A DNA stretch of 64,000 nucleotides from Podospora anserina. Its lineage: Eukaryota. The notes under the pieces were generated by a model. It ran no database searches. It worked only from the letters and a program-made list of their open reading frames with translations, and had not been told where the DNA came from. The position numbers and the translations under genes are program-made. Position 1 is the stretch's first letter; each line of letters begins with the position of its first letter. The stretch spans positions 4,464,001 through 4,528,000 of the forward strand of contig CM030336.1 in assembly GCA_017654855.1 (NCBI GenBank), written 5' to 3'. Positions 33,572 to 54,776 of the stretch are shown here, piece by piece.

Positions 33572-34843
33572 CGTGTGGAATAGTTCACGCGCGTCCGGGA
33601 TGTACATCCGTAGAGGTGTGGCTATGACAAAGTAGGAAGGCGACTATGACGGACAGGACTTGGCCTGCGAGGTTGGCAATGGCACATGAGATGCGATGCT
33701 GAATGGAGGTGGTGACTGTAACGGTGATGTTTTGAGAGTGGTTCCGTTTAAGATTTTATCGTCGTCGGGTTCTGCTGAGGGATGGGTGAGTTGGCACAGT
33801 TGACGGTTGGGTATCAGGGGTCGGCCCCGGTGGTCGCCAGTAGCCCAAAAGAATAATTCGCTGGTTTCTCGTCTTTAGATGCGGCCTGCTTTGAAGTCCA
33901 ACACTGAAAGTCACACAATGCGCATCGGATGGTAATTGGGAGTCGTCTTCTGCCACCTTCCGTGTTGGTGAGCTAGCTGTCAACTGGCCCGTCCAGATCG
34001 ATACCTGAGATCAGGAAACCTGCGGCGCAATCAGAATCGGGAGTGTTTGGTCCAATCGACAAAAGAGGGAGGACGTCGATGATGTCTTGATGATATTGGG
34101 TGAAGTAAATAACAAATGTGATTGAGTCGATGTCTGATGTTTCACTCTCATCCCGGAAGGTGAGGTGAGGATTGCGGTCAAGTCAGTGGAGCTGTGCTGT
34201 CCGTTGGGCTGCTTGATAAGGAAGGCGATAAGAAAGGTACTTCGTTGTATGTACAATTTGGGTGCAGTCTTGAAGTACCGCCTGTGACCCCACTCGAGCG
34301 TCACTGCCGGACCGGGGATGGCGGGCTTGAAGCTCCGACCGAGCAGCTCCGACCGAGCAGCCCCTGCCGTCGCCACTAGCTTCGGTACTCAGTCCGGTGT
34401 CATATACACCTGCCCTATCTGGACCGTGATGGGATCTGCACATGTGTCCCCTCCGCAATGGTGGCCGTCTTAATCACAGATCAGATACCCGAGCGCCGGT
34501 CCCGGGCAGCAGCTCGAACCCTGCCCCTCGTGGTTGTGTGACATGTGGGGGGAAGGAGGGGTTCCAGGGTGTGGTCGCGCGATATCTTGGGGATAAATGA
34601 CGAGGGTCATGTCGATGATGCAAAACCTCATGCTAGCTGCCCTGTCGCTTTGTCTCCAACTTTGCCTTCTGCATCTGGTGGTGCGGGGTAGCTCTCTCCC
34701 TCCCGATGTCTCCTGCCACCTCAGCTAAAAGTCCACCTGCCATTTTTTCTTGATAAAGACGGGGAAAGAGCACCTTGATGGCAGAGGTGGAGTGAACCCC
34801 GCCTTTTCCCCATCTTTGACATCTCGAGGAAACGCCGGCTGAA

Positions 34844-36554
34844 ATGAGCCATCTTGAACACGACGCCGCAGTGGTGATGGGAGCCGAAGAACTCTCCAGG
34901 CTGGAGCTGCTCCCCCCTGAGCTGGTATACAGCATCTTGTCTCACCTCTCACCCTTTGACCTTGTCGCTGTCTCGGCGACATCCCGCACCCTCTACACCC
35001 GTGCCAGCGCCGATCACCTCTGGCAAGCTCTGATTCAAGAAAACGTCCCTGGTATCCAAGTCAGGACTCCAGCACCATGCCGGAGCTTCAAAGCTCTCTA
35101 CCGGGCCCATGATCCCTACTGGTACCTGCCAAAATACAAGATATGGTTCGCAGATGTCAACCTCACCGGCAGACTCATCATCGTCCGCTACGACCCCCGA
35201 AGGGGCTGCATCGAAGGCTACCAACTCGTCGCCGCAAACCGAAGTCGCACCTTTCAACCCTGGGAAGCCAACCGCAACGTCTCGATTCACCACTTTGACC
35301 CTGTCGTTCAACTTCACATGGACAAGACCGTGATCCAGCTGGACGCCGTCGACTCTGCCGACTCTCTTGCCTTCGACTCGGACAGTCCAGCTTGGGCCCG
35401 TTTCAACACCATCAACCTCCGCCTTGTCCGTTCTCGCACCTCCTCGATGGAAGGCAACTTCTCTCGCTCACCCTCCCCAGCTTCAGTCGCTCCGCCTAAA
35501 CCCTCACGTCTCCTCTCCGAGCGTCAAATGCAAAATTACACCGACTCGATGTATGCAACCATCTTCCACACCCGCGTCCTTTCCTCCGACGAGATCTCCT
35601 TCTGCGCCTCCCCCAAGTTTCCCTACGGCTTCATCTGGCCACCCCCCGCCATCCCCTCGGGCCACCGCGTCTTCGGAACAGCCGCCAAGCTCTCCAGTGG
35701 ACGGCACTTCAAACCAGAGACCCGCCCCTCCTCCCGTTCCGACCTCTCCGACAAGGCCTTTGTGATCAAAACATGGCTTGCCACGCGCATCCCCGGCCGA
35801 GCTGTTTATAATATGTCCGTCATCGCAGATCCGTTAGCCGTAAGCATGATGAACCTGCCCCTTGCCGTCCGGGGAGACGACGCCGTAGACGACGCCCTAG
35901 ACGACGACGTCTCCATCCGGATGCAGATAGGGCAGGAACTCGCTACTTATGCCACACTGGACCCGAAACTGTACACTCCGACAAAAGAAAAGCCGTTTAG
36001 GGGGATCTGGGTAGGTGATTACTCGGGTCACGGGTGTGAATTTCTTCTTGTCACGCAACCAGATGATGAGACGCCTTTTGATGCCGAGAGTATCCAACCC
36101 CGTGAGGAAGAGTCACCCGACGAGTTTGAGAAGCGAAAACACGACGAAACTGTCTATCGTGGTCCGCTGGAGGCGGTTAAACTTACGGGTGACCCTAACG
36201 TTCCCCGAGGGGAAGTAACCTTTCGAGCTGCGGACCTAGGAGAAAGGGGGCTCATCAATATCTGCCAATATGAACCGTTTGAGGGGGTGAGGATTGTGAA
36301 GAGCCAGGGACATGTGGGCTCGACGGGATTTGTCAATGGTGAGTTCTTCTTCGATCTATCTACCTGTGGCGGGAGGGACGAGGATGATGGCTGACAGACC
36401 CCATAAATTTATTTGGGATGGCGCGACAGATAGCTTTATTGAGTCGCAGTTGTTGCTGATCAGCCACGATAGGCTGGCGCAGTATTGGTCTGAGTTTGGC
36501 CATGTGAGTTTCCTTCAGAGGGTGGATATTGATGGGTTCTTGGCTCCGGCGTAG
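34844..36554 (+). CDS. F-box protein (FBXO31-like C-terminal domain), 2 exons (intron 36339-36429)
   Basis: F-box LELLPPELVYSILSHL..DLVAVSATSR..DHLW; C-terminal GIWVGDYSGHGCEFL and EAVKLTGDPNVPRGEVTF; last exon DSFIESQLLLISHDRLAQYW. Confidence 0.9.
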
Positions 36555-36750: not shown

Positions 36751-38808
36751 TCACTTGCCATTCCCAGTACTCTCAGAAGCAGCCCTCATCCCCTCCCTAA
36801 CCTCTTCCGCCTCTTTCCTGAACCCACACCCATACGTCTCCCCCGTATTCCACACCAACCCTCCCTTACCCCCGTTCCCCTTGGTGCACTCGGGACAAAT
36901 CTTTACCCTATGCCACGCCGTCGCCAGGTTGCCCCGGACATTATATATCCCCTTGTGGCTCTCCGGCTGGGTATTGTAACTCTCGTCCGTGGCCTTGACA
37001 ATAAGCGTGGTGCACTGCTTCTTAGGCAACTGTCCCATCAAGCTCACCGACCGGCCGAATCCATCCTCGCAGTCCTGCCCAACCTTTGCCAGGGCCGGGG
37101 GTAAGGGGACAGTGGGTGGGAGGGAGAGGACGGGAAGAGTACCGTTGTATCTCCACCTTGTCCACCCCCAGCTCTTGTTCCCATAGCACGGCGTGGCTGG
37201 GTTGGAGCAGTCGTCCACGAGCTGGGCCTGGTCCCACGTCGCGCCGCCGTCGAGGGAGACATCAACGCGCGTGATTTTTCTGCCCCCGCCAGAGTAGGCG
37301 TATCCCTGGAGGGCAATGGGTTCATTGTCCGGTGTTGTTTCCGGACAGGGGGTATTGCCGTCAGAAGAGGTCGGTTTGGGGGTGAAGCCCACCTTTTGCG
37401 GTGTAGCCGCCATATCAATCGTTCTCCCCCCCCCATTCACCCTCTCCCCACTCCCAATACCTCCCCCCGGCATCCAAGAAACTTTCTTGACACACTCCCC
37501 CACCCAGACCCCCGTTATCGCGCTCGTCACCGGCATCTCCTGTATGCTCGGCGCCTTGTCCCAATCCTCCTTGCCCCCTTCGTTCGGCCCAAAGCTCTTG
37601 TAATCCCTCCTCTGCCACTGACTCGTCGCCTCCTCGTCCGAGATGACAATCCTGCTCAGCCACTTTACGCTCCTGGCAGCCACATTCCCCGGCACCACCA
37701 CCCTGAGTGGGAACCCGTGATCCCTCGGGAGTGTTTCTCCGTTCATCCCCCACGCGAGCAGCACGTCCCCGTTTTGGTCGGTCGCTTTCGGGAGCGGTAT
37801 ACTAGCCGAGTAAGCCTCCCTGCCGACAAACCAAGCGTGCATATCTTTTTCGTTCTCTTGTTGTTCCAACTCGAGCCCAGCATCTTTTAGGAGATCTTTC
37901 AGCTTCACGCCCTCCCAAACCGCGTTACTTATCGCGCCGACCCCCCACTGCAACCCGTTCGTTTTCCCTGCGTGTCGGGTCATGTCGTTCCTCCTGTTTC
38001 CACTGCACTGCAACGTTGCCGTAACTCTCTCCGTTTTAAATCTCTTTTTCAGCTCCCCAATCGTATACCTCCTCTCCTCCCCATCAGGCAACTCCACCAC
38101 CAACTCCCCCCCATCCTCTTCAGGAACCCACATATGATGCCGCACATAAAACATCCCATTCTCGGTGTAAAACCCCTTATCCAGCTCCTGGTTAGGCGGC
38201 TCCGCGTTCCTAGGCTTGTAAGTGTGCGTTATAAGTCTTTTGTCCCGCACCGGATCGTTTACGAATGGGTCTTCGATGCTCGTGGCGGGTGGTTTCCCGT
38301 CTGGACCGAGGTCGGAGGGGTGGATGTACCCGATTAGATACTCTTCTAGGATCTCTTTGACGTGAGGGGAGTTGTGGATGGTGAAAATTTCCCAGTAGGG
38401 CTCTAGGGAGCCGCCGGCGGCGCGGAGGATGACGTCCCCGCCTGGGTGGGCGGGGAGCCAGGAGGTGATGTTGTAGACTTTGTTGTTGAGGGTTACCCAT
38501 GGTTCGGGGGAGGTGGGACCGTGAGACTGGTGGATTTCGGAGAGGTGGTAGAGCGGGAGGGAGGGGGAGGGGGAAGGGTCGAGGGAGGAGGTTTCGGATT
38601 TGGATAGGAGAGGGAGGGTGAGGAGGAGGGAGGTGGTTAGGAGGAGGCTGGCGAGGTGGGAGGCTTTGGGGGGTGGTTTTGGGTGATGGGGTGGGCTGGT
38701 GGTGTGTAGTGGTCGAGGGAGAAGTCGGAGGTTGATCGGGGGGGCGCGTCGGGGCCGGCTATGGTTGAGGAGGGAGGTGATGGCTATTCGGGGGATGCGT
38801 GTCGCCAT
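36751..38808 (-). CDS. Mitochondrial sulfite oxidase (cytochrome b5 + molybdopterin + dimerisation domains)
   Basis: Presequence; b5 motif VYNITSW..HPGG; NAEPP and FYVRHH; Mo-ligand TLQCSGNRR; DHGFPLRVVVPG..ARSVKWL; GYAYSGGGRKITRVDVSLDGG; KATDESYNTQPE. Confidence 0.93.
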   Translation of the reverse strand: MATRIPRIAITSLLNHSRPRRAPPINLRLLPRPLHTTSPPHHPKPPPKASHLASLLLTTSLLLTLPLLSKSETSSLDPSPSPSLPLYHLSEIHQSHGPTSPEPWVTLNNKVYNITSWLPAHPGGDVILRAAGGSLEPYWEIFTIHNSPHVKEILEEYLIGYIHPSDLGPDGKPPATSIEDPFVNDPVRDKRLITHTYKPRNAEPPNQELDKGFYTENGMFYVRHHMWVPEEDGGELVVELPDGEERRYTIGELKKRFKTERVTATLQCSGNRRNDMTRHAGKTNGLQWGVGAISNAVWEGVKLKDLLKDAGLELEQQENEKDMHAWFVGREAYSASIPLPKATDQNGDVLLAWGMNGETLPRDHGFPLRVVVPGNVAARSVKWLSRIVISDEEATSQWQRRDYKSFGPNEGGKEDWDKAPSIQEMPVTSAITGVWVGECVKKVSWMPGGGIGSGERVNGGGRTIDMAATPQKVGFTPKPTSSDGNTPCPETTPDNEPIALQGYAYSGGGRKITRVDVSLDGGATWDQAQLVDDCSNPATPCYGNKSWGWTRWRYNGTLPVLSLPPTVPLPPALAKVGQDCEDGFGRSVSLMGQLPKKQCTTLIVKATDESYNTQPESHKGIYNVRGNLATAWHRVKICPECTKGNGGKGGLVWNTGETYGCGFRKEAEEVREGMRAASESTGNGK

Positions 38809-39509
38809 GGATGGTGGAGGCTGTGTGTGTGTAGATTTGGTAAGCTTTGTGCAAATGTCAGGAAGGAGTTTAGATAAAAGAATACAAACCGGTCCAGAGA
38901 TATCTTCACGTTTTCTCTCCACAAACCCAACAGGATGGAAGGGTCATCTGATCGCCTTGTTGTACAGGGAACAACATAAGACACGGGCGTCGGAAGCGGC
39001 TGCGGAAGCGAACACGGCGTTGGGGGCGGTCGGACACCTACTAGCAGTCATCCAATCTCTGCCCACCACGCAGCGGCCGCGCTGTTCACCGCCAGACGAA
39101 CACGATAGGAAGCCATACCAGAGCAAGATTCAGTTGGGCAGCCGATGGTTGCCGTCGATAGAAAGAAGTTGTTACGTCAGGGTCCGGCCAAGCTGCACGT
39201 CGGGAGCGTTCCGATGCGAAAACACCTCCTGTGATTGGCCAACCGACAGCTTCACAAGCCCGCCTGGAGCCCGCGCCAGCGCGGCGCTGCGCCGCTGTGG
39301 AGCAGAAGCTTTTCCCCGGATTTTCAGCGGCTTCGACGGCGCCTTGGCTCTGAAACTAGCCCTGTCTTGGCGGTGCAACTACAGTCCACACTTCTCATCA
39401 AAGGCAAAGAGAGAAAAAAAAACACTGGTACCTATCCAATTCCAACTACCTTATTTTGCTGTGAGATTTTGTAACAAGAAAAAGCAACAAAAAAGGAAAC
39501 CCTCTCCAT

Positions 39510-42500
39510 CTACTGATTGCCCAACCACTCTTCGTAGCTATATGCCTCAGGTTCTTGAGGCTCATCATACTCATCTCCATACCCATACCCACCATCCCCA
39601 TACAGGTCATCCTCCCCCGTGGCCCCGAGAACATGTCCGTACGGATACAAGCCGTCGTCATCTTGATCGGCCTGTCCCATGAGATCCATGTACCACGCCC
39701 ACGGGTGCTCAGCCTGCTCAGCCTGCTCCGCACTTCCCGTCCTCTTCAAAGCCGACGGGATGGCGCCCTGGTGCTGCCTCGGCGGCGACTGTCCCCTCTC
39801 CAACGGCTCCCTGAAACTAATGTTCCTCGCCCTCTTCCCAAGAGTTTGTATAGGGATCGCTCGCCTGTCAGCCTCAGCCTTCACCTCTTCATTTTCGTTT
39901 TCCAATCGCGTCGTTCTAAGGTAGGTCATGTCAGTATCTCATGCGATCACACGTCCCAGATAATGAATGGAGACACTTACAGGCGCCTATACTCCTTCTC
40001 AGACCTCGCCAACTTGCCCAATTCGGCTTTGATCTCTTTCCATCTCCTCTCATCGTGTCTATTTCCCATCTGTGTTAGCGCTACCTCATAATGGGGGAAT
40101 ACTAGGCGTCGAAAAACTTACTTGCTCATCTCTCCATTCGCGCTATTCTTCTTCTTATCCCTCAACACATTCAACCGATCCCTCTGCTCCTCCTTCTTCC
40201 TCACCGTCTGACTAACAAGAGCTAGCAATCGTTGCCACTGATTGACCGGCCCGTCCCCAATCATCTGCTTCACTTCATCATCCCACTCGGCAATAGCCTT
40301 GAACTCCTCCTCCAGCACCTTATCCTCTTGGGCGATCTGCTGTTCCGTTTCCTTGTCAGGCTTGTACGTGCCGTCCTCGGAGTCTCTTCTCTGTCTCTTC
40401 CCCGGGGGCTGCTTCGTGGCACTGGTATCTGGCGGCAGCTTTCGTTTCCCAGGCTGGTTCACCGCGGGGGTCTCCTCATCCTCATCAGAGACAACGAGGA
40501 ACTCGTCGGATGATTCGGACGTCTCGCCGGTGGGGACATAGTCGGGATCCTCCTCTCGTTGCTGACGCCTTCGCCTCTTTTCCTCTTTTTCCCTTATTCT
40601 TTGCTTTTGTTCCTCGGTCAGCGGACGACGTGCAGTCGGTTTCTTGCTGGACGTTGTAGGCTGTGGAGCTACTGGAGGCTGTGGAACCACTGGAGGTTGC
40701 GGAGGTTGTGGAGGATCAGGACCCCCCGTTGGTGGTTCAGTCTGCTGAGTACCACCACCACCACCATCACCATCGTTTTCATTGTCGCTAACTGGAAAAT
40801 CGTCAACCTCACCCAGACCAACACGGCCTGGTCTAATCCTCGTCGTCCTCAGTCCCCACTGGTTCCCATCATGTCCCAGTCCCTCCATGATCTCCTTGTA
40901 CTGCCACGGTTTCAACCCCTGTGGAAGCCCTCTCATCCCGATCCGTCTTTCGATCTGCCCCACCATGTGTCTCTGACTGACAGTCCGCATGTTCTCCCGC
41001 ATGGTCCTAGGGCTGAAGCGCTGCCCCGGAGCCCTATACGGTCCTTCATCCGGAAATTCAAACCGATCGGGCTCGTCTCCCGAGTTGTCGTCCTGTGACG
41101 AGTGATAATCTTCCAGGGCACCCTCCTCATCCTCATCTGCCTCCTCCTCCTCCTCCTCCTCCTCTGTCGAGCTGCTCACCTGCACCGGCGTGGTCTGAGT
41201 CCCAGCCGAGACACCGGTACGTCTCTCAGGTGTATCCCTAGCCCCATCAAACCCCATCCCATCTACCTCATCATCATAACCCCCCCCCACCGACACCAAA
41301 GTACTATTCCCCTCCCCAACCCCAATACCCAACCCCGGCGTCCTCCCAATCTGAGCCATATACCTACTCCACTTCCTCGGACTCCTCTTCCTAATCTCAC
41401 TTACCGGGACCCCCCCTTCCCAACTCCCCCTCGAAGCCGCCACCAGCCCAGCCATGCCATCATCCTCATCAAACCACGCCGGTCTAGCCCGCACATTCGG
41501 CATGTCAGGATCAAACGGGGTCTCCCACTCAAACCCCGTCAGATCCTCCGCCGGGATCCCCTCGTCGGTAAAAACCCCCAGCTTGAGCGGTTTCCCGACA
41601 TGGTTGGTGCACCACTTCTCCAACCACTCGACATGTATCTCATCCCCGTAGTGCTCGTCCCATTTGGCGGCATCCCAGCCCTGGCCGACGAAGTCCATGC
41701 AGATGGGGCATGGCTCACGCTTGTGCACTTTGCGGAAGTGGTCGACTGCCGTCTCGGGGGTGCGCAAAACAGGGAGGTAGCACTGGAAGAAGGGACAGTT
41801 TCTCGTCTGGAGAGCCAGGTCTTGAATGGCCCTCGCGCGGAGTTCTTCCGGGATGGGTGGCGGGCGGAGGGTGTAAGGTTGGATGCCTACTTTGGAGATG
41901 AGGTTAGGGGACATGTTGGGTTTGTGGGCGGTGACCACCTCGCTGATGACGGGTGGATCTTCCAGGGGAGGGTCGGTAGGGTCGATTGTGGGGGGTGCTC
42001 CGGGGGGGAGCTTGGTGGTGTACAGCAGCTTTGCCTTTGTCAGCGTGTCCAACGCCTTGATGTCCTCCAGGGTGGAGTAAGGTGGTTTGGGAGGGGAAGC
42101 TGGCTTCTTGTTTTCCGCGCCGGGACGCGGGGGACGGGGGGTGGTGTCTGTTGGGTCGAACTTGGAGGCGTCACGCTTGCCGGGAGGATAGGGGGTGGCA
42201 GGACTGGTGCTGGCAGGAGCGGGTGGGGTGGGATCGCTTTCGCCGGTGAGTTCTTGGATCCTCTTCCTGTATACTTGGTCTAAGGTTTCCTTGTTCTTGT
42301 AGCCGGCTGCTTCTGCCTCGTTGTTGGCGTGGACTTGGTTCCAGTAGTTTTCCTTTGCCGTGATATCTGGGAGACCAACCCCGGGCTTGGTGGTTGGCCA
42401 CTTTCTAATCCAGTATCCAGGGCGGTTTGGATTTTCTACCCAATGCTGGGGGTCTGGTGGAATCACACCCGTCTTTGCCGGGCTCTTCTTTGCTGGCTTG

Positions 42501-45500
42501 GTCGTGGGGGTTGGTTCCTTTGTTGGCTCTTTGGGAGCCCTCTTCGCTGCCCGTCCTGCAAAGGCCTGGGCGATACGGGGGTCGACAGCACCCTTGGGCT
42601 TACGGGGGGCTGTGAGTGGTTTCGGAGATCCCCTGGGCTTTTGGGGTGTCCTGATTCTAGAACGTGCGACGGGTTTGACCGGTTTGACCCGGGGTGTAGT
42701 ATAATGGCCTAGCGTTGGCGTTCCCGTCTCGGTGGGAAGGGTCACTCTCCGCCTCTTGTGACGGGTCGGACTGGGAGTCGGTTGCATACGGGGCTTTTCT
42801 TTAGGCTGCTCCTGTTGAACAGGCGCGACGCTCAGATGCAGCGGCCGCGTGAGCGGAGGTGGCTCGGATTGTTCCGCCAACTCTGGCTTGTCCTTCGGTA
42901 TCTTCACGAGTTGAAAATTATCTGGAAGGAAATCTAGCACCGGAACTTTCAACTGTTTCTCCCAAGGCTGCCACGTCCCCAAGTCTTCAATCGGTGTCGC
43001 ACGATACAATTGCCAGTCAAAGTTGTGCGTAACCGGCGGCGGTTTGTATCTGCCCCATAGCTTTTTCTGTGGAGTTTCGGTGTAGATGTCGCGATATCCG
43101 AACGGCTGATGCTCATAGATGCCCTCAAAAACCGGCAACGATTGCTCATCCACCTTGTTGATCCGCAGGTAAGGGTGGACAATGAGCCTCCGGGCCACTT
43201 CCCATTCAGTCTCAGTCATGGATGGACTAACAAGAATGTCAGGGAGGTCGGGGTCAAAGCCTTGGGTGATGCTGAAGTGGTCCGTCTTGCTGTCAAACGG
43301 CCCCCCATTTGCCATCACTTTGCCCACGAACTCTCGGAGTTTGTCAAGTGAGATCTCCCACAGAGACAGTGGGCACTCATGCACCAAAGCCCCGTCGTAG
43401 GAGGCATCCTGGAAACTATACCTCCTCCAGACCGGTCGTGACACGATAAACTGAGGGAACAGGCTGAGTGGGCTGGGTGCTTTAACACCCTTCGGGTAGA
43501 TCGCTTCTTTTGTCAGCTTCTCTATCTTCGTCATCAACTCGGCAAACGCCTCAACAAGAGGCGTAAAGGCTCTGCTTAATGCCGGGGCGAACTCTGCATC
43601 CGGGCAACTCGTATCGAGTACGTCGGCAAGGCTTATGTAGAGGGATGGAGGTGTACCCGTTTCGTCAGCAACAGGGTATTTTCCAAAGTGTGGCCCGAGC
43701 CAGTTCTCGCCAGGAAAGAAAACCTCCAGGTAGGTCAGCCCAGCGAAAGGGACCCCTTCTGCTGTCTTCCAGATTTCACTCGCAAGGATCGGTCTGAGCA
43801 ACCTCTCGGCAACAATCGAGGGAGCCGTCAGTTCCAAGTGCGTCAGATACCAGTCGTCAGACGCGCTGTCATATGGCTTTGTTTGGCCAAGGGCCAAAAT
43901 GTGCCATCGATCGGAAACCTGCCCCGACCCCCCTGGAGCGAATGCCCGAAGCGTTACCGCGTAAGTGTATTTCTTCGCGTTAACTACGTCGAGTTGCGCC
44001 GCAATTACCTCCCAGTTTGACTTGAGAAAGGCCAAACCTCCATATGTTACCGGAGCTTGGGTTGGATTGCCCTGCTCGTCGGTGGTGAAGGCATTTATCA
44101 GCGCAGCTGGGATCGCTGGGCGGCCTGGACGGTCGCGGATAGCTCCCGGTACCAACACACGGCATACTTGTTGCATCCAGAGGCTGTACTGATTCGTGAA
44201 GAAGGCAGTGGCAGGAGCATCGTCCCCGGCGGGCAACGGCAACCGAAGGTAAGCAACGTCTGGTCTACCTCTCCCTTTCAACTGTGGCCAGTCCAAGGTG
44301 ACCTTTCCAACATGGTGTCTGGCTCCCGGCTCCCACTTCCAGGGAATGGGGTCATGTGGACCTGCCACGAAGGGGATCAGCTTCCCAAAGTACGCGCTGT
44401 CTCCTGGACGGTATTGCTTGTCGATCTGCTGGCAAAGCCAGTTGAATGCGACGCGGTCCTTGGCAAGGGCACCTACCCCAGCACACTGCACGCGGCAGGC
44501 ATGCTGGTTGATATCAGCGAGAAATGCGTCCTTCTCCTCTTGCAACTCATAATCCTTGCTGGGATCCATGATGTAGAGGTTGTAAGTCACTGCAGCTCTG
44601 CTGTCAAGGCCAAGCAGACGGTCAACGGCGTCCACAAAGCTGTTAAAAATCCCACGACGGAACCAGACAACACCCTGGTACCCATGAAGCGGGATCATCA
44701 GGCTCTTTCCAGGCTGGAAACCAGTTTCCTTGGCGAACTGCTTCTCCAACTGACCAACCTTGGTTTTGAACGTCGGCGCCCTTTTCTCGTCCAGTGACCA
44801 TCTATCCGAGGCATTGTCGAGGGTCGACGGCGGTGGATATTTTGCTAGATTCCTCCACTGCTTACTTTTCGGAGGTTCTTCATCTGCCATGCCACCTCTG
44901 ATGTGCAGATCGTCGTCGCTCTCGTCCTCTTCCTCTTCCATATCCCAATCGTCATCCAAACCTCCACCGCGAAGGTCTATCTCGTTTGTTTCCATCATGT
45001 CGAGATAGGCGTTCACGTCCAAATCACCTTCGCGCGAGGCGAGGTCCTCCAGCGCCCACATGTCCACATCGGAGCCTTCCTTGGTGCTCTCCTCATCAGA
45101 CACGAGGTCATGCTCTTCCCCCATCACCATATCTGACCCACCGTCTGAGCTCACCTCCACCGCCTCGAACCATGTCTCCTCGAGCTCGTCCTCCCACTCA
45201 TCTTCTTCCAGTTCTTCGAGATCATTCTCACCTCCTCGAAGCCCTGCATCGACCTGGAGCCGGCGCATCCAGGGCGGCGGTTTGAGCTGCCAATTCCCCT
45301 CGTCATCAGCGTAAACATCCAGGTCATTCTCATGATAAGGCCTCCGTTTCATCCCCGCAAGCGACGGGGGCTTCCCTATAAAACCAGATGACCTCCCTCT
45401 GAACCCAACCGGCCCATCATAGTAAGGCCCATACCGCTTTTCTTCTTTCCTCCTCGTCAACAACAGTCTCCTCCCACCACCCATCCTTTTGGGTACTGGC

Positions 45501-46520
45501 GAGGCGGTGACATTATTCAGGGCTATTTAACATGTCAGTAGGAAACCCCAAAACAAAGGAGGAGGCCGAAAGAAGAAACATACCCTTCGCAGGCTCCGGA
45601 ATATACTTCTTGAAGTCATTCAAAAAGTAATACCTATCCTCAAAGTACTGCTCCCGAAACTCTTTCGACCCCGGCTCGAACATATTGCCCTGCACCTCAG
45701 CCCCCGGCGCCGGGATGGGCACCCCAATATAAAACGCCGCCAGTCTCGACGGCAAATCCCACGCCTCATCCTCAGCATCATACCCCAACACCTTGCCAAT
45801 CTGAGGCCTCAACCTCTGATACCCAAGCATATCCACCTCCTGAATCAGTGCCTCAGCCCGGTTGCTGCTGTACGCGACAGGGATCAAAGGCCAAATCTTG
45901 GCCAGCTGCTGCGTCGTAAAGTTGGCCTCGAGAAACATCCTCAGCGTGGTGTTAACATCCTTCCCATTGACAATCTCCCTAACAGCATTCCTAAACTGCT
46001 TGGTAATATACCCAAACCGGTCCTTTGTCCGCGCATCCGGGTTCAGCCGCGGATCCAGATTGTAATCCTCCCGTTCATGGTCCGGCATGAACGGGTCGTC
46101 GATCCGATAGAACCTGGGCACCTCCCGTTTCCCCACCCAGTCCTTTTCGTTTTCCTTTGCCTCCCTCGCGGCCTCCTCCACGTCCCAGAATCTTTCGGGA
46201 ACCTTGTCAAAGTTCTCGACCGACGTGAGCTCGCTCGTGGGATCGAGCGGATGGTAATCTTTTCTTTCCGCTGCGAGCTTGTTCCATGCGTAGGGCGAGG
46301 TTTTTTTCGCGCTCCGGTGGCCGAACTTGGGTGCTTTCCATTTGCCGTAAACGGGACGTCGATACGGTGGGGTCTTTGCCGGCGTGACGGGCCAGGCGCC
46401 TGGGGTCTCGGGGGTGGCCATCAGTTTCCAGTCTTGTCGTGTCCCGGCCATCCGCTGCTCAGACGTGTCTAACCAGCCGGCGTTGAGAAAGTTCCAAATC
46501 CTTTGAAACATGTGGGCCAT
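39510..46520 (-). CDS. Giant orphan protein (~2273 aa), 4 exons (introns 45523-45583, 40059-40121, 39916-39980), with (L/I)RGG motifs and a C2H2-like zinc-finger pair
   Basis: Three canonical introns (GTATGT/GTAAGT donors, CTGAC/CTAAC branch points, TAG acceptors) join ORFs 45513-46520, 40118-45484, a 78-nt exon and 39510-39929 in frame. It contains CPFFQC..HFRKVH and CPIC..HYGDEIH, P/K-rich and acidic regions, and NLS-like stretches. Confidence 0.8.
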
Positions 46521-47177
46521 CTTGGAAAGGACTTGGTTGTGGCGACAGTTTGTTTAGGTCGGGTGGTGGTGGGGGAGAAGGTGAGACGCCGATGGGGCGG
46601 GTTGGAAGCTTCATGGTGGTGGAAATATTCGAGGCTTGGGGACAAAGCGTGGTCAGTAAACAAGCTGGTGTGTTGTGTGGGGAGAGCTGCGTGCTATTTT
46701 CTTTGTTCTTCGAGTCAAAATACGGACTGGAAATCACGACCGCCATTGGGTCGAGGGGCAACAAACAAAGGCAACAGGGCTGCTTGCGAACATGGAAATT
46801 TCTGCGGATTGTGTCCGGAAGGGGTAATGCAAATAACAAAGGTTTGTGTTGACCTAACATTCAGACTCAATGATGGCGATGGGATTGAGTTTTTTTGCTG
46901 ACGGCTGCGCGCCTTTGAGCCTGTCAATCGTTCTCTGGGCGAGTTGCAGAGCAAGCAATGCTTTTTGACCTAACAATGGCATTCATTGAGTGATGAGGTT
47001 TGGTGCGGGGGGTACCATGTGACCTCTCATCCCTCTGACCTCGATGACGAAATTCGACAACATATCAACTTGCACAAATGCAATGGTTGTATTCAGTTAT
47101 ATTATACATTATGCCCTCAATCACCCCAACATCTCTTGAGTTGTCGCTCCTCAAGTTCGACCATACACCCGCCTCGA

Positions 47178-50762: not shown

Positions 50763-53700
50763 TTAGGAGATCATGCCTCCAGTCCGGTCTGGACACTCCT
50801 GAAGAACTTCGAGTACAGCATTTTTGGCTGCAACTACAGTTTTATAAGACCGTACGCTCATGCACCAACAACCCTCAGAACTTTCTTTCACCACATCAAC
50901 ACAAGATCGATCCCGTTGATCGCGAGCGCGCACATCAGAACCCTGCTGCAAAGGAAACGAATGGCTTCCAGCAAACAACAATCCTTCCTACAGGCCATCA
51001 GCAGGGGAGTTTCACCCTTTTGGTTTCGTGCGTCGATTATTGCACCATGTGCCAACAGCTTTTGAAATAGACGCTTTCGAGTGATACCGCCAAACCTCAA
51101 CTTCTCCGTACTATCTAGCGACAAGTCCGACATTGAACTGCTTGAAGAGAGGCGGCTCATTGGTGGACTTGTTGAAGAAGCCGTTTCTGACCCCTCAGTA
51201 TAAATCTCGCAGGCAATGTGAGGTGGTACATTTCCGGCCAAGTCTGCCAAGTTGACGTGTGGGCCTCTCCTAAGGAGCAAATCCAGGATAGACTGGGCGT
51301 TTCCCCAAGGCCATCGTGAGCGTGACTCTACCAAATGCTTCCGAATAACTTGATGCAGTAAAGGAGCACGAAGTGATGGCAGCTCCTGATCATATGTCAT
51401 GGCGTCGATATCGGCTCCAAAGTCAAGCAAGACACGGATGATTGAGTCATTTACTGACCCAAGCCAGTCTATCACCTTCTCAATAGTGTATTCTAATGGA
51501 GTGCGAGCAAAGGTTCTCTTGGTGACGTCCGCACCGGCCATCAGGAGGAAAACCAGACTCCAAAACACTCTGTGCTGAATTGCAGTCCATAGAGCTCCAC
51601 TGTTCGATAGATCGCTACCATGATCACGCAGAAACTTTATCGAGCTCTTTCCAATAGCATCAATCAATACTTTGGAGTCCTTGAGTGCTTTGAAATTGAA
51701 GTCTGGCTCAAACGGCTCTGCTGGATACTCACGGAACCGCAAGTGAGTCTCCAATAGTGCTGCCACATCCAGCGGGTCCAGCCTGTGCGTATTTGGCCGG
51801 TGACAAGCTACACCGCCGACGACGAGGTATTTGGTATCTTTCAGAACGCGGTGGGAATGTGAGCGACGATACCTGAAGCCCCGACCACGATCGATGTGCG
51901 ACCACAGTTTGCTCGTATGATGGTCTAGAACCGTCCAGCCAAGACCACAATTTGCGTGAATGTCGAAACCCATTTGAGCCACTGTTTTCAGGTAACCTGG
52001 GATGTTGGATTCACGTCGCCAGATTGACACGCTGCCTCCTCTCTCGGCCACTATGTGCAAAGGGGTCCTGCAAAGACCATCCCTCGCTGATAGCAACGTA
52101 GCCGGGTCCATGGACAGCACTATCCTGAGCGCCTCCAAATCCCTCATCGCTGCAGCAAAAAATAATGCTTGGACCAATCCCTTCTTGGTAGCGCCACAGA
52201 GATGTGCTCACATCTTTTCTCACAATCCTCTGTCGTCCCAGCTTCAAAGCCTTCCTCACTCCGTCCAGCCATTATGTCGGCCTCTTGTTGTAGAACGGTT
52301 CGTAAATGGAAGCGATGTTTGAGAAAGACCACAATGGAAGCTGCTGAGACCGCAGCGTAACCGTTGAATGGTGTTGGCTTAGTGGCCGGAAACATGGGAT
52401 AGGAAAATCGGTACCGAGATCTTCATATAATTCAGGATCCTGAGGACAGTTGCTGCGATGACGGGGTTGCAAAGGGGCGGCTGATGGCTGAACAGCTCCA
52501 AATACCAGTATGAATACCGAGGATGAGTTGGTCGTTTTGGATCATCCTCCTCCGCCTTTCTCACGTGTTGTGACCAGTTTGACAGAGAGTAAGCCAGAAA
52601 CACTTGTTCTTTTGGGCACTTAGTGTTATTCCACTCCGTATGCCGTCGCGGAACCTCCGACGTATTTATTGCTGTGAGAGCTCGGTATGCGGCAAGAATA
52701 AAGTGGAAAAGAACTCGGAAATGTGGAAGCTCTTGTGACCGAACCTATTGCAGCAGTTTGTCGTATGCGTAAAACACTGTAGATGTTGTCTCCTTGTTGA
52801 GGCTTCTCCGCGCTTGAGGTCTGTCGTCGAAGTTCTTCTCAAGCACTTGGAAGACTAAACCAATCCACAGATATGTGCGCTGTTGTGCGTCGACATCCTC
52901 GAGTGCCTCGCGAATGGCCAACTGGCGTTCCTCAGACACACGGCGTTTCTTTGCCAATGTTCTTAGACGATGGTCAATGACGAATTTAATTTCGTTTTGT
53001 ATTTGATCTTTCTCATTCCTCGAGTTCCCCGAAAGATGGACACAACTCATGTCGGAATCCCAGAATAGGTCCAAAATCTTTAGGTAGCCTCTTGTTGTGA
53101 GTAGGAATTTTACAGACGGTTGTCTGTCAGGCTTCAACTCATCATGCGGTGGCAGGAGTCGTCGTAGAAGCTTTACCAGAATGTGGAGTTGTTCTGGGTT
53201 ACATTCATCTAGCGCGTCCACTACGCAGATGATCTGGCAGGTCATGCTATGGCTAGCCGCTCCTTGAAAGAGAGAAGCAAGCGATGTAGGATCTGACACA
53301 AGATTGCGACCTTGAGCCTCAGTGCTGCCTTCAAGGTCATCAGCAACCACACCATGTTCGTAAAACAGTCCATGTAATAGAGAACAGACGGTAGAATCTA
53401 AGCCTCGTTGCTCTGGGGTGTCTGAAGAAAAAATAGCAAACAGTCGCCTCAGGCTGCTCAGCTGGGAGAATATTTGAGCCAGTTGCCGTGACAACAGATT
53501 TTCCACATCCTGGGTCGGCCGACACGAGCAACAACCCGCGCGGCTCTTTCAACCATCGCTCAAATTTCTCATGTCGTTGAAACCATTCGCACGTGCCGGG
53601 AATACGCTCTGGACTGAGCATCATCCGCTCTTCATAACTCGTTGTTTTAAAACCGCCTGTAATCTTACTCTGCATTCTCCTTCGCTCTGCTTTTATCGCG

Positions 53701-54776
53701 TTGAAGCTGGTCGCGCCGCTGGTTCCGAAGTTGTTGAACGATCTCTCGATTGTCGTATTGTAAGTTGCAACGAGAGAAATCACCTTCCAACTGTTTAATA
53801 GCATCGGTGCGTTCCTCCCAGTTATTGAAGCCAAGCAATGTCTTCAGAGGTCGAGTGAAAGGCCTATCCTTCAGACAGTAGGCCCCGCTCATCATCTCAT
53901 ACTCCATCGAGGTCGCGTAATTCTCGATGATAGAGACTTGGGGCGTCTTTCGCAGCTCAGATATCATCGCGTTATCCTCTCAGCTGCCTTCAAGAATAAC
54001 CTCGGATAGTTTCATGTACCACACCATCCGAGAGATGATGTAGTTTAAGCCCTCCACCATCTCTGCGTCTGCCATGAGTGGCTGGACAAGAACCCGCACC
54101 CCAGTGTTGGCAAATTTCATTGCAGTGTAACCTGGGCAACGCCTCTCACAGAGTGTGTGGTTTCCAACATACCGGAAGCACAGCGCAAATACCAGCCCAT
54201 GCCAGCCCCGCAGGCGGGAAAGCCCCCGCTATAGGACCGACCGCGCCTCCTATGGCCTTGAAGAATGTAACAGCATCGATCACCACCGTCTTTGCGTCCT
54301 CCTGCTTCGTTGCCTTCGCAATGGATCGCTGCGCAGAGGAGAGAAGCAGACCAAAACGAGCTTGTTCCTTCAACGCTCCTGCAAGTCCCCCAGGTGCAAA
54401 TACTGTTCCTGAGAATCCTTGTACTGGTGCCTGCTCACTCACAACAGCCTCATACCCATCGACCAGCTCTTCGTCCTTTTCCATGATGTTTTCGTAGGCC
54501 CGACTGCACAACTGAAGGGATATCGAGTTCTCCGCTTGACTAGAAATCTCTGTTGGATGAGTTGGCTCTTCGGCGGTTGGTTGGTTAGGTGTCGGCTCGT
54601 CGGCGGTCGACTTTGTGGCGGTTGAAGCTGTGACGATGTTCATTTGTTCGGGTTTCGGGCTGTGGGTGGGACGAAGAGAAAAAAGCGGTCAAAAACGACA
54701 ACGTTCCAGCACTGCCCGATGAAGCCGCAACTCCATCTTTCTGACGCCCGATTCGAAATAGTCCTTTCAGTCCCAT
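50763..54776 (-). pseudogene. NLR pseudogene: NWD-NACHT-N-like N-terminal domain + NACHT + ankyrin repeats
   Basis: SRAYE..DEELVDGYE and AGLAWAGICAVLP; RIPGTCEWF, P-loop SADPGCGKS, CYFFF, Walker B VVDALDEC, KFLLTTR and TYLWI; ankyrin TPLHIVA, TPLE and GETPLLMAC. There are in-frame stops (53980-53982, 53665-53667, 52745-52747) and several frameshifts. Confidence 0.88.

Follow-up and report, generated by a model that had tools for sequence, protein, structure and literature searches.

Can the last residues of ubiquitin act as a signal in a protein that has no ubiquitin in front of them? This question is raised by a 64,000-nucleotide stretch of the Podospora anserina genome (NCBI GenBank assembly GCA_017654855.1, contig CM030336.1, positions 4,464,001 to 4,528,000 of the forward strand), hereafter the window, from whose first nucleotide all coordinates are counted. 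Its minus strand encodes Pa_5_11300 (a member of its sequence cluster is tagged PODANS_5_11300), a very large protein with three tetrapeptides of the form (L/I)RGG in an acidic linker. An initial annotation, made from the sequence alone, proposed an orphan polyprotein that deubiquitinases would cut after each Gly-Gly. Here we describe the motifs, the family to which the protein belongs and the structural context of the linker, and we weigh cleavage against other explanations. A processing role is our preferred reading, held tentatively.

Three copies of a ubiquitin-like tail in Pa_5_11300

One frame of the minus strand of 44700-45700 encodes QVDAGLRGGENDLEE, NEIDLRGGGLDDD and DDLHIRGGMADEEPPK. 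The LRGG of site 1 is written CTT CGA GGA GGT (45241..45230, amino acids 407-410), the LRGG of site 2 CTT CGC GGT GGA (44974..44963, amino acids 496-499) and the IRGG of site 3 ATC AGA GGT GGC (44902..44891, amino acids 520-523), the last followed by ATG GCA GAT GAA (MADE...). The three motifs thus begin at residues 407, 496 and 520 and lie at the nucleotides where the initial annotation had placed them. The features of the linker, all on the minus strand, are as follows.

45230..45247 (-), site 1, A-G-L-R-G-G, amino acids 405-410; the copy conserved family-wide, with L407, R408, G409 and G410 each kept in at least 90% of 24 aligned orthologues
44963..44980 (-), site 2, I-D-L-R-G-G, amino acids 494-499; kept in 5/5 Podospora species, as also in the proteins of Cercophora samala and Triangularia setosa
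44891..44908 (-), site 3, L-H-I-R-G-G, then MADEEPPK, amino acids 518-523; aligned by MAFFT with the second LRGG of most Sordariales orthologues
45476..45493 (-), PKRMGG, a weaker motif, amino acids 323-328
44732..45520 (-), disordered linker, strongly acidic between the motifs, amino acids 314-576; from AlphaFold2 and composition

No other RGG of any kind is present in either the 2113- or the 2273-amino-acid model of the protein (both described below), in agreement with the earlier statement that the rest of the chain holds no further (L/I)RGG. From composition, 0.078 [LI]RGG would be expected per protein. Among 20000 shuffles of the whole protein, none contained three or more copies, 51 contained two and 1451 one; when the 262-residue linker alone was shuffled (n = 20000), three or more were again never obtained and two were obtained 3 times. 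The other open reading frames (ORFs) of the window with at least 100 amino acids, 33,909 residues in all, have no [LI]RGG. The cluster is therefore real and non-random.

The stretch between sites 1 and 3 (amino acids 411-519, 109 residues) contains 48 Asp or Glu residues and 3 Lys or Arg residues. This acidic, disordered context is unlike that of RNA-binding RGG boxes, as had been noted before, and the defining feature of such boxes (clustered RGG/RG in a Gly/Arg-rich stretch) is absent from the protein.

Two smaller claims about the linker hold in part. PKRMGG is present upstream of site 1, but the alignment of 24 orthologues shows no conservation of it beyond Podospora. The sequence MADEEPPK does directly follow site 3, where it had been proposed as a new N-terminus, but its Met is not conserved and P. 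comata has lost the IRGG itself. All Podospora species compared (5/5) retain sites 1 and 2, and the P. comata protein (P0028) reads LHIRDG in place of LHIRGG. Thus, site 3 is dispensable, or was recently lost, within the species complex.

The motif is conserved in a Sordariomycete family

A word-indexed search identified 23 homologues in the Sordariales (E 2.8e-240 to 9.8e-26), among them NCU06930 of N. crassa and THITE_2145404 of T. terrestris. When 1.84 billion representatives were searched with a profile, 264 proteins were returned at E <= 1e-3, 80 of them at E <= 1e-30, and so the description of the protein as an orphan has to be given up. Details of the wider family are drawn from the best 150 of these 264 proteins. 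Twenty representatives were looked up, and 14 of them are named (Fusarium, Stylonectria, Cladobotryum, Stachybotrys, Colletotrichum, Xylaria and relatives, Monosporascus, Ophiostoma). Every named relative belongs to the Sordariomycetes; together with the Sordariales they span three subclasses and five orders. Look-up confirmed the lineage for five of the names, and the remaining ones presumably fall in the orders to which we assign them. Pa_5_11300 is thus a member of an undescribed Sordariomycete family.

We identified the motif in nearly all members that retain the N-terminal domain. In the alignment of 24 orthologues (A1), the text that surrounds the four conserved residues of site 1 is unalignable. 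LRGG lies upstream of the central region in 22/23 of the homologues (the Podospora protein itself excluded), with two or more copies in 16/23; the exception, P0015, is a model that starts after the linker. For the wider family, from which the redundant Podospora cluster members P0027-P0040 and P0177 were dropped, [LIVM]RGG occurs within 400 amino acids downstream of the N-terminal domain anchor in 58 of the 60 proteins that retain this anchor, and the other two have LRGA and PRGG. Most relatives carry one or two sites; three were found only in the proteins of Podospora and of its two nearest relatives, Cercophora samala and Triangularia setosa.

The contrast with the flanks is sharp. When 35 diverse members of the family were aligned (A5), no more than 15 columns of the whole protein proved invariant or nearly so, and L-R-G-G accounts for 4 of them. 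Among 101 first motifs, pairwise identity per column is 0.96-1.00 within the motif and 0.05-0.09, the random level, in the flanks. It is 0.32 and 0.21 at the two residues that precede the tetrapeptide (positions -2 and -1) and 0.28 at the residue that follows it (P1'), beyond which there is a mild enrichment of Asp and Glu. The expectation that orthologues would keep the motifs while the linker diverges is therefore borne out well beyond the Sordariales, with the motif kept in all but two of those 60 proteins. These comparisons show a short linear motif under very strong purifying selection, which at the level of sequence copies the last six residues of ubiquitin/NEDD8.

We found no literature on an LRGG motif in this family, supplements being outside the scope of the search, and none that names Pa_5_11300. 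Among the titles listed for papers on LRGG motifs, all concern ISG15, the coronavirus papain-like protease (PLpro) and deubiquitinases.

Likeness to the ubiquitin and NEDD8 tails

The motif logo was drawn from 167 instances in 113 of 160 family proteins, the sequences being related and the counts not independent trials; most of the other proteins look like fragments that lack the N-terminal part. Positions 0 to +3, L/I-R-G-G, were those selected on. At position -2, in the place of ubiquitin L71, 145 of the 167 instances have a hydrophobic residue (L 90, V 19, I 12, M 9, and others). At position -1, in the place of residue 72, they have mainly small residues (S 57, G 39, T 11, A 8), with R in only 9. 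The consensus is thus hydrophobic-[S/G]-L-R-G-G. Ubiquitin ends in L-R-L-R-G-G and NEDD8 in L-A-L-R-G-G, with Arg and Ala, respectively, at residue 72. Because the residue at -1 is small, the motif is nearer to NEDD8 than to ubiquitin. The difference of one residue between the two tails is described in PMC3731359.

Residues at P1' are G (73), A (31), E (17), D (11) and S (11) among the 167, and Pro does not occur there, although Pro makes up 7.4% of the flanks. Bonds between ubiquitin and Pro are cut poorly. Thus, a scissile bond after Gly-Gly would call for just such a lack of Pro.

A disordered linker upstream of predicted ubiquitin-like modules

The family shares a layout of a small helical N-terminal domain, an acidic disordered linker, a folded central region, a Pro/Lys-rich disordered region, C2H2 zinc fingers and a charged tail. 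Two AlphaFold2 models were made, the first of amino acids 314-1185 of the Podospora protein (24 aligned sequences) and the second of P0045, an orthologue of 868 amino acids (35 aligned sequences). The regions downstream of the linker are as follows.

42941..44713 (-), central folded region, opening PLHGYQGVVWF, amino acids ~583-1173; from AlphaFold2 and Foldseek
43136..43429 (-), best-supported single beta-grasp module, amino acids 1011-1108; from VIA-align
41633..41797 (-), two C2H2-type zinc fingers, amino acids 1555-1579 and 1584-1609; from sequence pattern

In the Podospora model, the predicted local distance difference test (pLDDT) score is below 50 over most of residues 1-263, which make up the linker; the three motifs score ~25-30 and the residues that precede them ~25-43. 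In the P0045 model, a helical N-terminal domain (residues ~55-173, pLDDT >90) ends in the anchor FGLPVAP, and a disordered stretch (174-330, pLDDT ~30) contains both LRGGs. Because the residues before the motifs are disordered in both models, no fold directly precedes any motif, and a beta-grasp fold ending directly in the tail is absent from both. The LRGG stretches are docked on no domain in either model, an observation to which we give no weight in either direction. The family anchor reads ...LYFGLPVxP; the Podospora protein has no match to this pattern, and MAFFT aligns its exon 1 there at low identity.

The central region is well ordered. It has a predicted template-modelling (pTM) score of 0.71 in the Podospora model, with most 10-residue blocks at pLDDT 75-92 over amino acids ~583-1173, and it mostly exceeds pLDDT 90 in P0045. 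Across the family it opens PLYGYQGxVWF...FVDAVDRLLGLD, a feature that the Podospora protein shares, and the aligned region has 38 invariant columns. In the PDB, Foldseek matches both models best to the USP7 HUBL array, which has five domains, and to linear tetra-ubiquitin, with 420-550 aligned columns, E ~2e-4, a probability of ~0.6, template-modelling (TM) scores of 0.1-0.2 (at most 0.24) and identities of 8-11%. With VIA-align, amino acids 1011-1108 match ELMO2 (Z 5.9), closely followed by the ubiquitin-like (UBL) domain of USP7, PB1 domains and the ULD of TBK1. Residues 744-857 of P0045 match a PB1 domain (Z 6.4) and, at Z ~5, whole ubiquitin and NEDD8 over 73-77 residues; these Z scores rank as middling by the standards of the tool. 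A beta-beta-alpha-beta pattern recurs in the DSSP strings of both models. We interpret the central region, with moderate confidence, as tandem beta-grasp (ubiquitin-like) modules. The claim that no ubiquitin fold is present therefore stands for the region directly upstream of the motifs but not for the region downstream, which resembles a ubiquitin-like array.

Y-G-G-L (amino acids 806-809; window 43033-43044 region) is invariant or nearly so across the family and lies inside the central folded region. It was considered as a second tail and rejected, as it is in a well-ordered strand region of the P0045 model.

In the zinc fingers, all 24 orthologues share C1555, C1560 and H1574, and at least 90% of them share H1579, C1584 and C1587; no Cys of the central region is invariant in the same set. 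Pfam gave no hit reaching threshold in the window protein and 11 members. In 136 representatives its output was limited to two zf-Di19 matches below threshold, a match to low-complexity sequence and the domains of a merged gene model (P0135, see below). Sequence-profile searches of the PDB with A1 and A5 returned nothing significant (best E 0.008, to a low-complexity stretch), the weak C2H2 matches including TFIIIA at E 0.04. A look-up of the N-terminal 312 amino acids in the ESM Atlas gave no usable match.

Gene structure and presence of the motifs in mRNA

Joining the exon 1 ORF to exon 2 over a GTATGT..TAG intron (45523-45583) gives a protein of 2113 amino acids that is identical to the deposited P. 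anserina S protein CDP30202.1 (P0003, 'Putative protein of unknown function'). Contigs from four public sequencing runs were mapped to 39400-46700; the RNA type of the runs is a guess, and we relied on the spliced joints. Joints were identified that skip 45523-45583 (2/4 runs), 40059-40121 (4/4) and 39916-39980 (4/4), all of them GT..AG on the minus strand. The resulting four-exon coding sequence encodes exactly 2273 amino acids, the approximate length first proposed, and is as follows.

45584..46520 (-), exon 1, amino acids 1-312 and the first base of codon 313; N-terminal region, a probable but divergent equivalent of the helical N-terminal domain seen in the family; from the ORF, the splice model and joint 45522>45584 in runs X1 and X2
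45523..45583 (-), intron 1, 61 nucleotides, GTATGT..TAG
40122..45522 (-), exon 2; linker, central folded region, Pro/Lys-rich disorder, zinc fingers and acidic/basic tail
40059..40121 (-), intron 2, 63 nucleotides, GTAAGT..TAG; joint 40058>40122 in 4/4 runs
39981..40058 (-), exon 3, 78 nucleotides; from contigs
39916..39980 (-), intron 3, 65 nucleotides, GTAAGT..TAG; joint 39915>39981 in 4/4 runs
39510..39915 (-), exon 4 through the stop codon; C-terminal 135 amino acids, ending ...EEWLGNQ and matching the C-terminal extension of sister-species models

Long contigs cross the linker without a break (41342..45522 in X2, record 13; 42033..45367 in X1), and no splice joint was identified inside it in the contigs of the four runs. 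Because these contigs are continuous through the linker, the motifs are present in the mRNA. The codons for LRGGE at site 1 (45230-45236) resemble a consensus 5' splice donor, AG|GTGAGA, that is unused in every spliced contig.

The P. anserina model as deposited is too short, because its stop codon sits within intron 2; two further exons (39510-40058) contribute 160 amino acids that match the models of sister species (n = 4; 2251-2276 amino acids, with a C-terminal extension of ~160). At position 46471, contigs of X1, X2 and X5 have G where the window has A (T>C on the gene strand, codon 17 in exon 1). The strains probably differ at this position; an A-to-I pattern would not apply to this transcript, as the change affects the opposite strand.

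Proposed processing after Gly-Gly and its alternatives

The motif may be a processing site for a ubiquitin- or NEDD8-specific protease, a reading to which we give somewhat less than an even chance. The enzyme would be a cysteine protease, either a deubiquitinase of the USP or UCH class or a deneddylase of the DEN1 type, and its cut after Gly-Gly would detach the N-terminal region from the nuclear part with the predicted UBL array and zinc fingers. In Podospora, cuts would also free two acidic peptides with GG at their ends, 89 and 24 residues long. Such cuts would probably serve to activate or relocalise a latent regulator. Points in favor are the non-random motif, its conservation, its likeness to the tails, its exposure by disorder, its presence in mRNA and the predicted ubiquitin-like modules directly downstream. 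There are precedents for cleavage of a bare tail: USP1-UAF1 is reported to hydrolyse LRGG-AMC (AMC, aminomethylcoumarin), for which USP12-UAF1 needs WDR20 (PMC8024992), and USP1 to cleave itself at an internal diglycine, G670/G671, in an inserted region (PMC4326527). Because USP1-UAF1 cuts a bare LRGG and USP1 cuts its own internal diglycine, processing of the Podospora protein is plausible. Of the polyprotein first proposed, the motif, its conservation, its tail likeness and its acidic disorder are supported; the orphan status and the complete absence of a ubiquitin fold are not.

Reports on relatives bear on sexual development. A unique frameshift in a male-barren strain is reported for NCU06930 (PMC3276140). 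FGSG_13162 (pdv-1) is given as the F. graminearum orthologue of NCU06930 in PMC5509106, where its knockout has small perithecia and no asci. Smaller perithecia without ascospores, and down-regulation of the gene in MAT deletion strains, are described in PMC4559316, and the gene is annotated as a 'transaldolase' in PMC5310905. According to PMC3567183, deneddylases control multicellular development in fungi.

Several observations weigh against processing. The case for cleavage is built entirely from conservation and resemblance. Most cellular deubiquitinases draw the greater part of their binding energy from the ubiquitin body, and neither model has such a body ahead of the motifs. Pfam identified no protease or ubiquitin domain in the 136 representatives and 11 members, although the fold of the N-terminal domain was not searched alone. 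None of the 23 short N-domain relatives is a natural form ending at LRGG; each is an ORF call of exon 1 that runs out within an intron. No single degron rule would cover the N-termini that cleavage would create (G, A, E, D, S and others). The invariant Arg and both Gly residues would suit a protease that has Arg at P1, or a site used purely for binding, just as well. As for phenotypes, the place of FGSG_13162 in the family depends on the table of PMC5509106 and on the 'transaldolase' misnomer that it has in common with P0116, and the N. crassa NCU06930 knockout is tabulated as wild type (PMC5509106).

The same conservation and tail likeness would be expected of an uncut docking site, in which the motif mimics the ubiquitin/NEDD8 tail in the tail-binding cleft of a deubiquitinase, a deneddylase, the COP9 signalosome or an E1. 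The protein would then serve to recruit the enzyme or would be its pseudo-substrate, and the 'body' would perhaps come from the ubiquitin-like modules downstream. The position of these modules just after the linker suits this proposal, as does the failure to identify a protease domain or a processed natural form. However, strict Gly-Gly and the absence of Pro after it (0/167) find their simplest explanation in a scissile bond, the presence of one to three independent copies suits sites better than a single docking surface, and the AlphaFold2 models show no intramolecular docking (weak evidence). We regard docking as unlikely. A cut after Arg (L-R|G-G) by an unrelated protease, for example a metacaspase or other Arg-specific endopeptidase, is less probable still. 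The invariant Arg followed by small residues, the hydrophobic residues at P2 and P4 and the exposed, disordered location are all compatible with such an enzyme. It would leave unexplained why both glycines are invariant and why the hexapeptide equals the ubiquitin/NEDD8 tail, and we know of no Arg-specific fungal protease that needs Gly-Gly at P1'-P2'.

RGG is a classical target of PRMT1-type enzymes, and the motif could in principle be a place where arginine is methylated, or where RNA or another protein binds. The chances of this appear slim, as there are only three RGGs in 2273 amino acids, the flanks are acidic and not Gly/Arg-rich, the invariant Leu and the hydrophobic residue at -2 are foreign to the rules of RGG boxes, and one or two isolated copies per protein are the norm of the family. 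Some other role (a strand that completes a beta-grasp module of a partner or of the protein itself, a sorting signal, or a constraint on the RNA) has a low but appreciable probability. The donor-like AG|GTGAGA that the codons of site 1 form counts in its favor. On the other hand, the contigs of the four runs show no splice joint in the linker, conservation is at the level of amino acids across five orders while the flanks have diverged, and no strand complementation is seen in the AlphaFold2 models.

The boldest form of the processing reading goes further. A bodiless ubiquitin/NEDD8 tail, the bare hexapeptide of the linker, would be cut by a UBL-specific protease, with the first downstream module perhaps occupying the ubiquitin-binding site of the enzyme as a separately supplied body. 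The GG-ended products (the helical N-terminal domain and, in Podospora, the two acidic peptides) would be functional, read by receptors for GG ends or even conjugated to targets, and would amount to a novel class of GG-ended modifier or signal in control of Sordariomycete sexual development. We think it very improbable that all of this is correct.

Comparison with known systems

Precursors of ubiquitin and NEDD8/Rub1 and ubiquitin fusions, which are cut by UCH/USP enzymes and DEN1, are like this family in their hydrophobic-x-L-R-G-G tail and in the non-Pro residue after GG. The residue at position 72 is mostly small in the family, as in NEDD8, and not Arg as in ubiquitin. Unlike the precursors, the family has no beta-grasp body upstream of the tail; its predicted ubiquitin-like modules are instead on the C-terminal side.

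Sde2 of S. pombe and human has a ubiquitin-like domain followed by GG and is cut by a deubiquitinase (USP5; as described in PMC13572447). GG-directed internal maturation of a nuclear regulator would apply to both systems, but in Sde2 cleavage is directed by its own upstream ubiquitin-like fold, whereas the upstream part of the family consists of a helical domain and disorder. The autocleavage of USP1 is closer in this respect, as the GG is in a flexible insert with no ubiquitin fold before it and is cut by a USP-type enzyme (PMC4326527). However, USP1 cuts in cis with its own catalytic domain, and the family has no protease domain by Pfam; nor did Pfam identify a fusion to a deubiquitinase, ubiquitin or a peptidase in the 136 representatives.

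Coronavirus PLpro cuts at LxGG in interdomain linkers, and one very large chain holds several such sites, which resembles the arrangement here. In that case the protease is encoded in the polyprotein, whereas the family is cellular and class-wide in fungi and also conserves Arg at P3 and a hydrophobic residue at P6. The HUBL array of USP7 is the top Foldseek match to the central region in two independent models, but with TM scores of 0.1-0.2, identities of 8-11% and no USP catalytic domain in the family, the likeness is a resemblance of fold only. PacC/Rim101 and Stp1/Stp2 are latent fungal zinc-finger regulators that are activated by endoproteolysis. In these, too, a regulatory part is removed and a zinc-finger nuclear protein released; the proteases and site motifs are different, there is no sequence relation, and activation is only proposed for the family.

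Thus, the new aspect would be GG-directed processing or recognition, known in kind, in an undescribed family. If the sites are cut, this would be the first such cellular family known to us, in which a bare ubiquitin/NEDD8 tail without a preceding fold is a conserved processing signal. The range of substrates of deubiquitinases and deneddylases would be widened, and a function would be provided for a large family without a Pfam domain in five Sordariomycete orders, one reported Fusarium orthologue of which is required to form fruiting bodies and ascospores. Should the sites prove to be uncut, an almost invariant six-residue motif in an unalignable linker is still a clear new example of a short linear motif with a tie to the ubiquitin system.

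Gene models of relatives and neighboring genes

The two halves of the protein are separate gene models in Colletotrichum spinosum, with adjacent locus tags on the same contig. Among P0178-P0199, which are relatives of the N-terminal domain, members of the Hypocreales and Glomerellales type have an intron ~20-30 codons before the LRGG, and the exon-1 ORF calls all stop shortly after ...RNWGKDxLxG.

The next gene downstream of Pa_5_11300 (36754-38943, minus strand) encodes a cytochrome-b5 / molybdopterin sulfite-oxidase-like protein. One family member, P0135 (2281 amino acids), is a model fused to the same three domains as this protein. Because P0135 combines both, the two genes are probably neighbors in its species as well and were merged by the annotator.

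The window lists 46 ORFs outside the gene, and no deubiquitinase was identified among the 27 large ones that were scanned. An ORF with F-box and Cyclin_D1_bind domains, a ubiquitin-ligase substrate adaptor, is located two genes away (34820-36391, plus strand); we draw no link between it and the motifs. ORFs at 50891-54688 (minus strand) encode NACHT_N (NWD type), NPHP3_N and DUF7069 domains and ankyrin repeats, and look like a fungal gene of the NOD-like receptor (NLR) type.

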